Virus record (IMG/VR): IMGVR_UViG_3300044452_000161
Length of the DNA: 64,000 nt
Origin: a virus
Reading direction: 5' to 3' (one strand)
Part shown: piece after piece, positions 14,319 through 29,315 of the stretch
How the letters are laid out: each line of letters starts with the position of its first letter
Numbering within the stretch: the stretch's first letter is position 1
Notes under the pieces: generated by a model
The model's input: only the letters and a program-made list of their open reading frames with translations
Database searches by the model: none
Told to the model about the DNA's origin: nothing
Made by a program: the position numbers and the translations under genes

Positions 14319-14570
14319 ATGAGTAACGAACAGAAAACACGCCTTGTAAACGTAACCGCTACGATGATTTCTGACCTTGCCGCCACCGTGCGTGTGCCCA
14401 GTGATGTCACGGATGATCAAGTGTTAGAATGGTATCGGGACAACGGCGCGTCCGGAGAATTCATTGAGGACGGATGGGGCGCTTGGGAATGGGGAAGTGC
14501 AAGCTCTGTAGAGACCAATGAGGTAGAGGATGGTGCGGCCATCCACGATCTCACGGGGGAATTTGCGTGA
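14319..14570 (+). CDS. acidic hypothetical protein
   Basis: 83 aa downstream of GANTC-type promoter. Confidence 0.75.
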   Translation: MSNEQKTRLVNVTATMISDLAATVRVPSDVTDDQVLEWYRDNGASGEFIEDGWGAWEWGSASSVETNEVEDGAAIHDLTGEFA

Positions 14571-17349: not shown

Positions 17350-17706
17350 AACTCAAACGATGTCGTCCGAAACCGTTCCTAGAACCGTTCGGAGGGCTAT
17401 CGACTGCGCGGTGGCATCCCTGCAGGTAGTACCTGTGAACGTCGCAGTATAAAATGGGTCGCCACACTAACAGAAAACTCGCTTACTCCGGAGTATTACC
17501 TCCCGAGGCGCATAGGTAAGACGCAGTATAGCGGGGGTTTGGTTGGAGTTTGTAGCTGGGGAGCAGACTAGCCTCAGCATCCAAGTTTCGGAGAGACTGC
17601 GCCGAGAGGGGCCGCGCCATAGTTTACTCCAAGTAGTTCACATTCAGCGCCGAAGTATGTCCCCCTGTGTGATTGAAAAGGCTTCTGATCAAACCATTCA
17701 CCCTTT

Positions 17707-17782
17707 TGCGGGATGGAGAAGTAGTCATCTCGCTTGGTTCATGTCCAAGAGATCGTCGGTGCAAATCCGGCTCCCGCAACCA
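17707..17782 (+). tRNA. tRNA-Met(CAT), initiator-like body
   Basis: body resembles bacterial fMet tRNA but T1-A72 is paired and the anticodon stem lacks three G-C pairs. Confidence 0.8.
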
Positions 17783-17930
17783 TTCTGAAATAGCCTGCCC
17801 TCTCCTTCACACCCTCCCGGCAGGTGAACCTCCGGTGCCCAAACCGCAGTCCTCGCGGGCGTCCGAAAGGGCAGACGTTGGTGTCACGTTTTACCTGGCA
17901 CCAAGAGTAGGCTCGGAGGAAAAAATCTAT

Positions 17931-18033
17931 ACTGGCGTAGCTCAGAGGTAGAGCGCTGAGACGTAAACACTCTCGGAGACGCAGAGACACGGGCAGCACA
18001 CCGTGTTGGGTTCAAATCCCGCCGCCAGTTCCA
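17931..18033 (+). ncRNA. aberrant tRNA-like RNA (9-nt anticodon loop, extra arm)
   Basis: perfect acceptor ACTGGCG/CGCCAGT plus TCCA, canonical D arm, TTCAAAT T loop. Confidence 0.65.
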
Positions 18034-18051
18034 ACCCCGAAAATGTAACCC

Positions 18052-18603
18052 TTGGAGGATTATTTTATGTTAGCTGGTATCTTTGCCTTGGGTTTCTGGC
18101 CCTTGGCGTTCTTTGTTCTGTGTATTGCAGGCCTTTTCTGGGGCACAATCGCAGAGTCAGCCGTTGGACTAGCCATCGTCATTGCGATTGCTGTAGCGGC
18201 AGCAACTTTTTCTGGATACGACCCCCTTGGGTATCTTTTCCAGTCCCCGTCTCTATTCTTTTCGGGAGTGGTTCTTTACCTCCTGCTGGGCCTTGGATGG
18301 GCTGGTTGGAAATGGCGACGCTACTTGAAAAAGCCTGAGATTTTCAAACAGATTTCTCAAGCCAAACAGGACTTTTTCGACCAGTCTCCGTCACTGAGTA
18401 TTGATGACTTCATGGACAGTGAACTTTACCCAGACGTAGCTTGGCTTTCGAACAACAAAGATCGGATCATTAGCTGGTGGATGATGTGGCCACTGTCTGC
18501 ATTCTGGTATGTCCTCGGCGACATGCTCGTCGAAGCCTTCAACTGGCTGTACGGCAAGACAGCAGGCTTGTTCCGAAGCATCAGCCGATCAACGATTTCA
18601 TAG
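18052..18603 (+). CDS. membrane protein
   Basis: 183 aa with multiple hydrophobic segments; GGAGG RBS suggests ATG at 18067. Confidence 0.8.
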   Translation: MEDYFMLAGIFALGFWPLAFFVLCIAGLFWGTIAESAVGLAIVIAIAVAAATFSGYDPLGYLFQSPSLFFSGVVLYLLLGLGWAGWKWRRYLKKPEIFKQISQAKQDFFDQSPSLSIDDFMDSELYPDVAWLSNNKDRIISWWMMWPLSAFWYVLGDMLVEAFNWLYGKTAGLFRSISRSTIS

Positions 18604-21316: not shown

Positions 21317-22324
21317 ATGAATACCCAAATCTACCGGACAACCGCTGGTTCTTTCTTGTTTGGTGCATCAACGCCTTCGTCAGATCGCGATTACAAGTCG
21401 GTTCATCTGCCAGATGCGCGTTCAATCCTGTTGGGAACAGCGAACAAAGTGAGTGATAAGAGCACTGGAGGTAAGGATCGGAAGAACTCAGCCGATGATG
21501 TTGATGAGACGTCTTTTCCGCTTCAAAAGTACCTCAAAAATCTTGCGAGTATGGAAACCAATGCCATCGAAATTTTGTTTTCATATCGTCTAGAAGATTT
21601 TCCCGATGATGGAACGTTCGGATGGTATATTTGGAACGAAATCTATCAAAATCGGATGAGAATTCTCAACAGCAACAAGCAGAGCTTTCTTGGATACGCC
21701 AAGGCGCAGGCCATGAGGTACAGCGTTCGAGGAGAACGTCTGAAAGCGCTGAAAGCAATAATTGAATTCCTGAAGTCCCAGGATGCTTCAGCCCGGATCA
21801 GAGACCTCAATCTCAGCCCTGTGTTGTGGGAATTTGAAGGAATTCGAGTGCATGATCGGCAAATTCGCGATCAAAACGGCAGTTTTTACGCGATGCCGCA
21901 CATTTGTGTTCACGGGAGGCAAACACCGATCACTTCTACTGTGTCAGAAGCGCTGAAAGTCTACGAAAAGCCTTTGAAGAACGCGAGCCATCGAGCCGAA
22001 GCGGCTGTAGAGGATGGAGCGGACTGGAAAGGCATGTATCATGCTCAACGGATCGTACACGAAGGCATAGAGTTGTTTTCGACAGGTAACCTTGTCTTTC
22101 CTTGCCGACACGCTCCGTATTACCTTGATATTCGAAACGGTGTTATTTCTCTTGATGAGGTTTTGAACCGTTTTGACGAGTCTTTACTTGAACTCGAAGG
22201 AATAGACCCAGCGAAACACTTTCGAAGCCACGCCGATCACAAGTGGATCGATGAGTTTGTTTATGCTGCGCATGAACAGCAGGTCGTTTCTGCATACGAA
22301 AGTAACATTATTCAAGAACAATAG
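21317..22324 (+). CDS. Pol-beta superfamily nucleotidyltransferase (RlaP-like)
   Basis: GSFLFGASTPSSDRDYK catalytic motif; helical C-terminus WKGMYHAQRI. Confidence 0.8.
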   Translation: MNTQIYRTTAGSFLFGASTPSSDRDYKSVHLPDARSILLGTANKVSDKSTGGKDRKNSADDVDETSFPLQKYLKNLASMETNAIEILFSYRLEDFPDDGTFGWYIWNEIYQNRMRILNSNKQSFLGYAKAQAMRYSVRGERLKALKAIIEFLKSQDASARIRDLNLSPVLWEFEGIRVHDRQIRDQNGSFYAMPHICVHGRQTPITSTVSEALKVYEKPLKNASHRAEAAVEDGADWKGMYHAQRIVHEGIELFSTGNLVFPCRHAPYYLDIRNGVISLDEVLNRFDESLLELEGIDPAKHFRSHADHKWIDEFVYAAHEQQVVSAYESNIIQEQ

Positions 22325-22504: not shown

Positions 22505-22593
22505 GGGTAGGTTCAGCCGCTGGTCGCGGCATGCGGGTTGTAACCCCGTTCCGTGTAATGCGGGCGCAGTTCGATTCTAGCACCTACCCACCA
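22505..22593 (+). tRNA. tRNA-Tyr(GTA), non-canonical 8/4-like fold
   Basis: loop TT-GTA-AC, long variable arm, 8-bp acceptor, 4-bp bulged T stem, A-CCA. Confidence 0.75.
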
Positions 22594-24598: not shown

Positions 24599-24895
24599 AT
24601 GCTTGTACCTATTATCGCATTTTGTGCCATTATTGATGGTGATGTTACGCAATATTGCACAACCATCGAGGACACCAAAAACACCTACCAAGTGGTGAAA
24701 GAATGCGAAAAGCGTGCAACGGAAGTCAAAGATTCTCGTCTCATCCAGTTCCAAGCCATTGAAAATATTCGGAGACAGATTGGACCGGTGTGGGACAACA
24801 AGATGTCCTTCGATCTTTTCTGCATAGATGAAAAGAATGTCAGTGACTTTTTGCTGAAGAAATACGGAATTTTAGCCGACGATGTGGCTATATAG
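24599..24895 (+). CDS. hypothetical protein
   Basis: start moved to MLVPII (the track start lies inside the tRNA). Confidence 0.65.
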   Translation: MLVPIIAFCAIIDGDVTQYCTTIEDTKNTYQVVKECEKRATEVKDSRLIQFQAIENIRRQIGPVWDNKMSFDLFCIDEKNVSDFLLKKYGILADDVAI

Positions 24896-24983
24896 TCTGG
24901 TGACGGAACGGTAACGTGTCGGATTGCAAATCCGAAGCCTCTTAAACCTCAGAGTACGGGTTCGAGTCCCGTCCAGACTTCCA
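24894..24983 (+). tRNA. tRNA-Cys(GCA) with long variable arm
   Basis: loop TT-GCA-AA, U73-CCA, 20-nt variable region. Confidence 0.85.
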
Positions 24984-26971: not shown

Positions 26972-27058
26972 GGAAAGTGAACTCAGCGGGTGCTGGGGAC
27001 TGGTTGCTAACCAGATCGGACTTTAGGGTCTGGGGATCGAGACCTCCTCTTTCCGCCA
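26972..27058 (+). tRNA. tRNA-Ser(GCT)
   Basis: type II cloverleaf, G73-CCA. Confidence 0.9.
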
Positions 27059-27059
27059 T

Positions 27060-27146
27060 GGACAGTAAACTGGGGAGGTCCCCGGGACCGCCTTGAAAGC
27101 GGAGCGCACATTCGTGTGTGGGGTTCGAGTCCTCTGCTGTCTGCCA
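27060..27146 (+). tRNA. tRNA-Ser(TGA)
   Basis: type II cloverleaf, G73-CCA. Confidence 0.9.
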
Positions 27147-28026: not shown

Positions 28027-28218
28027 ATGCGTAAACGGTATGACATTGAGGGCGACCTTTCATTGGTTACAGCCCGCCTGCACGAGCTAGCGATATGCGG
28101 CATCGATGCAGGGAATTTGAATGATATTCGCCGCCTTACTGAGGCGGTGAATACGCTTGTAAGAGAAGCGGACATGTATGCTCCGCAAATCATTAATTTT
28201 CCTGCCGATGGAAGGTGA
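28027..28218 (+). CDS. hypothetical protein
   Basis: 63 aa. Confidence 0.55.
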   Translation: MRKRYDIEGDLSLVTARLHELAICGIDAGNLNDIRRLTEAVNTLVREADMYAPQIINFPADGR

Positions 28219-28296
28219 ACTCAGTAGGTACTGAGGCTCGCTTCGAAAGCGATGCGGACTTTCGAGTCTGGGGATCGAGACCTCCGCCTTCTGCCA
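28210..28296 (+). tRNA. tRNA-Ser(CGA)
   Basis: type II cloverleaf, G73-CCA. Confidence 0.88.
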
Positions 28297-29228: not shown

Positions 29229-29315
29229 GGACGGTGAACTGATCAGGTGATCAGCATCGCTTGGAAAGCGATTGGGGCCAACGAGCCTGGGGATCGAGAC
29301 CTCCGCCCTCCGCCA
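29229..29315 (+). tRNA. tRNA-Ser(GGA)
   Basis: type II cloverleaf, G73-CCA. Confidence 0.9.

Follow-up and report, generated by a model that had tools for sequence, protein, structure and literature searches.

What might a gene be for that keeps the body of a tRNA, down to an encoded CCA end, but not a usable anticodon loop? The question is raised by an element in a 64,000-nucleotide stretch of phage DNA (IMG/VR record IMGVR_UViG_3300044452_000161; this whole stretch is referred to below as the window). The answer that we favor, at a probability of roughly 0.45, is that the element is a processed, non-decoding tRNA mimic that was remodelled from tRNA-Thr(CGU).

A tRNA-shaped element in an RNA-rich phage island

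The element lies in the genome of a marine roseobacter phage, a relative of the DSS3P8 group; the portal protein encoded in the window is 65 to 68% identical to those of Roseobacter phage DSS3P8, Ruegeria phages V10 and RpAliso, Phaeobacter phage MD18, DSS3_MAL1, and Rhodobacter phage RcXuper. ARAGORN called 27 tRNAs in the window, which also contains a permuted tmRNA of the alphaproteobacterial type and a tRNA embedded in GOLLD RNA. A nucleotidyltransferase gene (21317-22324), annotated in relatives as encoding a tRNA nucleotidyltransferase, matches the Pfam family RlaP, a Pol-beta family of an RNA repair pathway, at 24 bits against a cut-off of 23 bits. An island with a tmRNA, GOLLD, and an RlaP-family enzyme fits a phage invested in RNA maintenance; it assigns no role to the element, but such a neighborhood does speak in favor of the mimic.

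Within this island, the element is flanked by a second tRNA-Met and an open reading frame (ORF) (Table 1). The 148-nt spacer between tRNA-Met and the element (17783-17930) has a predicted multi-branch fold (-51.4 kcal/mol, z = -1.9), and neither an Rfam match nor a counterpart in the relatives was found for it. The product of the downstream ORF has a hydrophobic N terminus, as judged by inspection, and falls into no Pfam family; among 5.8 billion proteins, we found a single homologue, 99% identical and encoded on a 6169-bp JGI contig.

Table 1. Parts of the tRNA-shaped element and its immediate neighbors in the window
Feature	Position	Strand	Remarks
Second tRNA-Met(CAU), upstream neighbor	17707..17782	+	Synteny anchor common to all relatives
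Whole tRNA-shaped gene	17931..18033	+	103 nt including encoded U73-CCA; Rfam RF00005, fold, covariance model R1
Acceptor 5' strand ACTGGCG	17931..17937	+	Pairs with CGCCAGT at 18023-18029; inverted repeat I1; 7/7 Watson-Crick
First acceptor pair			A1-U72
D arm GCTC-AGAGGTA-GAGC	17940..17954	+	Canonical class I type; G18G19 present
Anticodon-like hairpin	17956..17976	+	6-bp stem CTGAGA/TCTCGG, one U.G
Anticodon-like loop CGTAAACAC	17962-17970	+	9 nt; CGTAA of Thr(CGU) loop inside; without U33
Linker AGACGCAGAG	17977..17986	+	10 nt, purine-rich, single-stranded
Extra hairpin ACACGG-GCAGCACA-CCGTGT	17987..18006	+	Variable-arm-like; inverted repeat I3
Extra-arm strands	17987-17992 / 18001-18006	+	6 bp, 7 counting flanking G.U
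T arm TGGG-TTCAAAT-CCCG plus C65	18007..18022	+	Rfam alignment; set against 208 canonical tRNAs
Discriminator U73 and encoded CCA (T-CCA)	18030..18033	+	
Downstream ORF, 178 aa	18067..18603	+	GGAGGA ribosome-binding site; start codon 33 nt past CCA

The initial annotation had described an acceptor stem with CCA, D and T loops of canonical form, a 9-nt loop on a 6-bp anticodon stem, a linker, and an extra arm. Each of these features was found at the positions given for it, and the observation of a tRNA-shaped element at 17931-18033 is confirmed. Its helices are all paired (acceptor, 7/7; D, 4/4; anticodon-like, 6/6; extra arm, 6/6), U8, A9, and A14 are present in the body, and the tertiary nucleotides of the D and T loops are unaltered. 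The T stem has only 4 pairs, with a U49xC65 mismatch and a U50.G64 wobble; the extra arm directly abuts it, nucleotide 48 being missing.

Against the Rfam tRNA model, the element scored 35.6 bits, compared to a curated gathering cut-off of 29, with an E-value of 9e-4 window-wide and 3.6e-6 locally, a match that exceeds chance. Model positions 1-71 of RF00005 are all aligned to the element, its acceptor, D, and T arms included, with 23 nt in its middle passed over. The score, the full-length alignment, and the intact helices all argue for the mimic. When E-values up to 10 were admitted, the Rfam scan returned, besides tRNA, only one sub-threshold, unrelated sRNA; ARAGORN, at its default settings, did not call the element as a tRNA.

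Compared to shuffled sequences, the extra hairpin has a stability z score of -2.9 (2/500 shuffles) and pair probabilities of 0.92 to 1.0, while the anticodon-like hairpin has a z score of -2.5. The element is also predicted to fold independently of its flanks, joint folding with the upstream spacer included, which again favors the mimic. Weighing against that reading, the predicted ensemble is split: a cloverleaf-like fold has a probability of ~0.4, versus ~0.58 for a competing fold in which positions 11-15 of the element pair with 26-30 (CUCAG of the D arm with CUGAG) and positions 40-43 pair with 53-56 (UCUC of the hairpin with AGAG of the linker).

The anticodon loop and rejected tRNA readings

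A canonical anticodon arm has a 5-bp stem, a 7-nt loop, U33, and a purine at position 37; the element has a 6-bp stem and the 9-nt loop CGUAAACAC. Inspection found no U before any triplet following the stem and no parse with a 7-nt loop, which supports the earlier claim that the element cannot decode normally. This loop, without U33 and without a 7- or 8-nt parse, is the truly aberrant part of the element. A frameshift-suppressor tRNA of the sufD or sufJ type, with an 8-nt loop and U33, was rejected as well, the loop being 9 nt long and having no U33-type position after the stem.

At lowered thresholds, ARAGORN did report the element, reading it as Ser(GGA) interrupted at 31/32 by a 12-nt insert. 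We rejected this reading, since C33, G37, and an A.G mismatch remain in the parse and since GGA is among the four (8/4) Ser tRNAs with which the window is already supplied. We know of no bacterial splicing mechanism at the 31/32 insert position. An intron-containing tRNA was likewise rejected: Rfam gave no match to an intron family, and the only parse is the poor insert at 31/32. Such a tRNA would have its insert at 37/38 or in the loop, show a group I core or a bulge-helix-bulge motif, and be canonical once the insert is removed. A tRNA-Tyr reading, based on ACGUAAA, which is like a Tyr loop, and on the long arm, is at odds with the Thr-type acceptor and D arm and with discriminator U73; moreover, a Tyr(GUA) gene is present elsewhere in the window, at 22505-22593. 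An (8/4) or (9/3) fold fails because U8 cannot pair with C65, and the 7-bp acceptor, 4-bp D stem, and 7-nt D loop exclude the element from the allo-tRNA, or (8/4), class, whose members have a 12-bp acceptor branch split 8/4 or 9/3 and a long D stem with a tetraloop (Mukai et al. 2017). The genuine (8/4) Ser tRNAs of the window do not resemble it. In class II tRNAs, the variable arm is preceded by 1 or 2 unpaired nucleotides and followed by 1, and the D arm is of the class II type. The element, whose D arm is of class I and whose hairpin is preceded by 10 unpaired nucleotides and followed by none, is not a class II tRNA (Ser, Leu, or Tyr). Finally, a pseudoknot between loop and linker (CGU with ACG) would comprise 3 bp only and is sterically implausible. 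A search within the window for partners of the loop, the linker, or the extra-arm loop yielded none beyond chance, a result that counts against the mimic.

The four Ser tRNAs of the window (26972-27058, 27060-27146, 28210-28296, and 29229-29315; anticodons GCU, UGA, CGA, and GGA) are each 87 nt long and have a Sec-like (8/4) fold, with an 8-bp acceptor, a 6-bp D stem with a tetraloop, a 4-bp T stem, a long variable arm, and G73-CCA. They escape default ARAGORN and Rfam at the gathering threshold; the type was previously described for alphaproteobacterial phages (Mukai et al. 2017, PMC5389517). The tRNA-Tyr(GUA), located just before tRNA-Phe, was also missed by both finders. The 3' strand of its T stem reads CTAGCA, compared to CTGCA in DSS3P8, and the resulting one-base bulge is due to either decay or an assembly error.

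Probable origin from tRNA-Thr(CGU)

In a blast comparison with the relatives, 23 consecutive bases of the element were identical to tRNA-Thr(GGU) of RpAliso. Judged by the upper body, the nearest among all tRNAs of nine loci was tRNA-Thr(CGU) of MD18 (MT270409.1 10625-10699; L002:19270-19344), which is identical to the element at acceptor positions 2-7 and 66-71 and has a nearly identical D arm and an encoded CCA as well. A covariance model of the element itself, R1, found its best non-self matches among the relatives, at 47.5 bits, in Thr(CGU) of MD18 and MAL1. Additionally, the loop of the element holds CGUAA, that is, the anticodon and positions 37-38 of the Thr(CGU) loop. A canonical Thr(CGU) gene is present in DSS3P8, MD18, RcXuper, and RpAliso, and in RpAliso it is found in the corresponding neighborhood, adjoining the second tRNA-Met; the window has Thr(UGU) and Thr(GGU) only. 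Because the window phage is without a canonical Thr(CGU), and because of the near-identical acceptor and D arm and the CGUAA in the loop, we consider, with moderate confidence, that the element is probably this phage's Thr(CGU) gene after remodelling. The affinity of upper body, R1 matches, and loop to Thr(CGU), and the presence in four relatives of a gene that the window lacks, also favor the mimic.

Compared to the MD18 tRNA, the element has A1-U72 instead of G1-C72, U73 instead of A73, and a T stem of 4 pairs; in place of the 5-bp stem and 7-nt loop there is a 6-bp stem with a 9-nt loop devoid of U33, and where the MD18 tRNA has AGGUC the element has a variable region of 30 nt that includes a hairpin. 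In the proposed remodelling, the loop would have lost two bases before the anticodon and gained four to five after it, and the variable region would have acquired some 25 extra bases forming a perfect hairpin. In the body, the T stem would have been weakened, G1-C72 would have changed to A1-U72 with compensation, and A73 would have become U73. As a source of the insert, we considered the variable arm found on 88-nt Lys tRNAs and dropped it, the 11-nt match between the two being at chance level. A triple GAGAC repeat in the inserted region and a 9-nt direct repeat flanking the element are at chance level, too.

A singleton with analogues in related phages

The comparison set consisted of the tRNA islands of six relatives (L001-L006) and eight related loci from metagenomes or IMG/VR that were retrieved through the conserved nucleotidyltransferase (L007-L014). 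No copy of the element was found by blastn of 17400-18600 against INPHARED, by scans of IMG/VR with an exact 24-mer and a stem-tolerant Thr-acceptor pattern, or among nucleotidyltransferase-anchored loci in IMG/VR, JGI metagenomes, and GTDB genomes. Similarly, R1 detected no ortholog in 14 related loci, 100 IMG/VR loci, and five whole phage records. With no second copy in five cultured relatives, IMG/VR, or INPHARED, the element stands as a singleton. Since there is no ortholog in the relatives and collections searched, its novel helices are without backing from covariation or conservation, which is the main weakness of any functional claim, the mimic included.

What the relatives do have, in the slot after the second tRNA-Met, is a set of differing tRNA-shaped RNAs without a usable anticodon arm, all ending in U-CCA. 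In DSS3P8 (L001:6986-7043), in V10, and at L011:501-558, a 58-nt mini tRNA-like RNA lacks an anticodon arm but has a short D-like hairpin and a canonical T arm, together with an acceptor, a conserved GUGCACC, and U73-CCA. Its acceptor covaries between two phages (CGCCGCG/CGCGGCG versus CGCCGGA/TCCGGCG). A second family occupies the slot in MD18 (L002:6199-6279), MAL1 (L006:2736-2800), and RpAliso (L004:2136-2215); its members, of 65 to 81 nt, have the acceptor GUCGAGA/UCUCGGC, a non-canonical T-like hairpin, a variable middle, and U73-CCA. These occupants of the slot, and the covarying 58-nt type in particular, argue for the mimic.

In RcXuper, directly after the syntenic tRNA-Met, we found an unannotated, Thr-like 134-nt element (L003:2372-2505; 31.3 bits against the Rfam tRNA model) with the same plan as the window element: a 7-bp acceptor, a GCTC/GAGC D arm, a linker, a 7-bp extra hairpin, and U73-CCA. 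Its 6-bp stem is capped by a 29-nt folded insert, and it is also a singleton. An unannotated, Thr-like element of 140 nt in a metagenomic locus (L007:4066-4205) has a rod for an anticodon loop, an extra hairpin, and G1.U72, and so stands at a G.U intermediate of the compensated change at 1-72, another point in favor of the mimic. An unpaired 49-65 with C65 is common to these two oversize elements and that of the window, versus 10/208 canonical tRNAs, a comparison that was made post hoc and that also lends the mimic some support. A broad pattern scan of IMG/VR returned more than 117 oversize tRNA-shaped genes with the D arm of the element, several of them in recurrent families. A solitary, Thr-like tRNA body of 117 nt was observed in IMGVR_UViG_3300037419_000652 (L054:1944-2060), with A1-U72, U73, the CTCGC/GCGAG anticodon stem of DSS3P8 Thr(CGU), and an AGGTC variable loop. 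In this body, a 47-nt folded insert replaces the anticodon loop, and the 3' end is TCCG, not TCCA.

A singleton of this kind might also be a gene on its way out. Under this explanation, tRNA-Thr(CGU) would have been disabled when indels altered its anticodon loop and its variable region took up an insertion, and it would now await deletion. The absence of the element from the relatives and databases searched is in keeping with this, as is the fast turnover of tRNA content among these phages. The phage could also do without the gene: between them, Thr(UGU) and Thr(GGU) suffice to read the four Thr codons, and ACG, at 180/731 Thr codons, is not used to excess. The changes in the loop resemble two small indels relative to a CU-CGU-AA loop, and the GAGAC repeat hints, weakly, at slippage. 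The decayed T stem points the same way, as does the imperfect tRNA-Tyr, from which it appears that either decay is tolerated or assembly errors are present; both observations weigh against the mimic. However, all helices, both non-canonical ones included, are fully paired, the change at 1-72 is compensated, and the tertiary nucleotides of the D and T loops are untouched. Decay would not typically yield a 25-nt insert with a perfect hairpin, oversize or anticodon-less analogues occupy the slot in relatives, with at least one type conserved with covariation, and dead DNA is quickly purged from phage genomes. On balance, we consider a pseudogene less likely than the mimic, though it is the strongest of the alternatives.

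Going further than the mimic as such, one could regard the slot after the second tRNA-Met in DSS3P8-group roseophages as the home of a fast-diversifying class of non-decoding U73-CCA tRNA bodies, of which the element would be the version built from Thr(CGU). Such RNAs would be matured, perhaps aminoacylated independently of the anticodon, and would serve as bait or competitors for tRNA-directed defense nucleases or sensors of the host. The long arm and U73 might then act as the anticodon-independent charging signal, and the disabled anticodon loop, along with a T stem poor for EF-Tu, might keep the RNAs off the ribosome. We think it very unlikely that this whole scenario holds.

Acceptor end, extra arm, and prospects for charging

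The element had initially been called chargeable-looking, a description that is somewhat too strong: the first pair is A1-U72 and not the Thr-type G1-C72, and the T-stem pairs in contact with EF-Tu are degraded. An encoded CCA is universal among the tRNAs of the phage group, and U73 occurs in 43/205 of them (21%), some Thr tRNAs included; both are ordinary in this phage group and are not special marks of the element. Work on T stems from the Uhlenbeck laboratory is said to allow the prediction of EF-Tu binding from T-stem pairs, and the broken 49-65 and the wobble at 50-64 would predict poor binding.

The extra arm is best read as a class-II-like variable arm and not as something exotic, since these phages also have decoding tRNAs with long arms, for Lys (88 nt) and for Cys (86-90 nt), and since a matching layout exists on a tRNA of the amber-suppressor type. 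That tRNA, the best architectural match (55.2 bits with R1), is 105 nt long and was found in IMGVR_UViG_3300043788_000023 (L086:59-163, minus strand), where it lies in a phage tRNA cluster accompanied by a permuted tmRNA. Like the element, it has a class I D arm, a purine-rich linker of ~10 nt, and U73-CCA, and its variable hairpin is 7 bp long. Unlike the element, it has a 7-nt loop, CUCUAAA (U33, anticodon CUA), and all 5 bp of the T stem, and from these features it appears to be a working amber-suppressor decoder. A search for a portal homologue in this partial record found none, and the phage was taken as unrelated. In this record, a 170-kb phage fragment, three consecutive CUA tRNAs with different bodies (75, 79, and 105 nt) lie near the permuted tmRNA (L132:9807-10283) and may point to TAG reassignment. 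As for the long-arm Cys and Lys tRNAs (window 24894-24983; L003:11855-11942 and 14350-14437; L001:14324-14411), class-II-like arms are unusual for these two specificities, and the Lys tRNAs of the window itself are of normal length.

Could the element, then, be an aminoacylated adaptor, charged by ThrRS or SerRS and used for four- or five-base or frameshift decoding or for non-ribosomal donation? Its acceptor end is intact, and Anderson et al. reportedly found, in 2002, that engineered 9-nt loops read five-base codons. By E. coli rules (G1-C72, C2-G71, and CGU at 34-36), the cues for ThrRS are incomplete: C2-G71 is kept and CGU is present in the loop, where it directly abuts the stem, but G1-C72 is an acceptor determinant of ThrRS in E. 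coli, and A1-U72 removes it. SerRS needs a long variable arm and G73 or U73 (Mukai et al., PMC5389517), which the element offers. The lowered-threshold parse as Ser(GGA) points to serine, too, and the 105-nt U73 tRNA with CUCUAAA, placed among tRNA(CUA) genes, suggests that the body plan is compatible with decoding. Nevertheless, the loop has neither U33 nor a 7- or 8-nt parse, and the ARAGORN parse requires removal of the 12-nt insert, with its C33, G37, and A.G mismatch remaining. The unpaired stretch before the variable hairpin, with nothing after it, is unlike that of Ser tRNAs, the window is already furnished with four (8/4) Ser tRNAs and two Thr tRNAs, and the predicted weakness of EF-Tu binding is a further obstacle. 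We regard an adaptor as the least probable of the readings considered here.

A proposed non-decoding tRNA mimic and its possible action

The reading as a non-decoding mimic starts from the following features of the element. The parts read by processing enzymes and tRNA-binding proteins (the 7-bp acceptor, U8/A14, the elbow formed by G18G19 and T54-C56, and CCA) are retained, the decoding end is a closed 6-bp hairpin, and a class-II-like hairpin is present in addition in the variable region. Promoter and terminator prediction gave no site between the upstream tRNAs and the element or between the element and the downstream ORF. Because no promoter- or terminator-like site separates these neighbors, we infer a single polycistronic transcript, so that the element would be transcribed within a tRNA/ncRNA island. 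It would then be excised by RNase P (U at -1, A at +1), trimmed at the 3' side to CCA, and accumulate as an L-shaped RNA that the ribosome could not use for triplet decoding. Judging from this context, its role would most likely be to occupy, or compete for, proteins that recognize the body of a tRNA and not its anticodon. Candidate targets are host tRNA-targeting nucleases or sensors or a synthetase, e.g., SerRS, which reads the long variable arm. At the minimum, excision would create the 5' end of the downstream mRNA.

That minimum might, in principle, be the entire function, with the tRNA fold kept as a cis-acting signal for RNase P and 3' cutting that parts the upstream structured RNA from the downstream mRNA. 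The ORF starts shortly after CCA, with no promoter- or terminator-like site between it and the tRNA island, and the canonical parts of the element are the acceptor, T, and D arms only, i.e., what RNase P requires. The t-elements of plant mitochondria are an established precedent, in which cleavage by RNase P or RNase Z at a tRNA-like fold beside an mRNA can set transcript ends (PMC1920247). They are, however, usually partial folds without a full D arm and CCA, and both organism and enzymes differ. Furthermore, neighboring true tRNAs would suffice for such processing, tRNA-Met being 148 nt upstream, and the well-formed extra hairpin and the 6-bp anticodon-like hairpin would be left unexplained. 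The ORF is unique to this phage lineage, so its pairing with the element cannot be checked elsewhere. A role confined to processing appears to us quite unlikely.

A mimic would not be without company. The species 1 and 2 RNAs of T4 (rnaC and rnaD) and the RNAs of T5 are small stable RNAs of phage tRNA clusters; those of T4 are larger, and their expression and processing have been demonstrated. The element resembles the T4 type in being a non-decoding, tRNA-related gene that is co-oriented in a tRNA cluster and has a tRNA-type 3' end, and its location and encoded CCA would suit a stable RNA of this kind. YrlA-type Y RNAs have a tRNA-mimicking domain that is a substrate of tRNA enzymes, do not decode, and are tied to RNA repair or surveillance genes (Chen et al. 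2014, PMC4201824). The element, like them, retains an acceptor/T/D body, and the RlaP-family enzyme is encoded 3.3 kb away. It is not itself a YrlA or Y RNA: the Rfam match is to tRNA only, and the termini form an acceptor stem with CCA, not a Ro60-binding stem. The element belongs to a known, if poorly understood, kind, the tRNA-like small RNAs of phage tRNA clusters, and no new category is called for.

Implications

Phage tRNAs have been proposed or shown to escape or replace tRNAs that are cut by host nucleases (PMC10264068, PMC11555353), and phage tRNA clusters are now seen as weapons in a contest over host tRNA. Standard tRNA finders miss real tRNAs of the phages studied here and can be coaxed into false parses. 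If the element is merely a decaying gene, it shows how fast tRNA genes turn over in these phages. If it is a true mimic, a closed decoding end on a tRNA body would represent a different tactic, mimicry instead of replacement, and one genomic slot that is recurrently occupied by such RNAs in cultivable phages is a system in which this can be tested.
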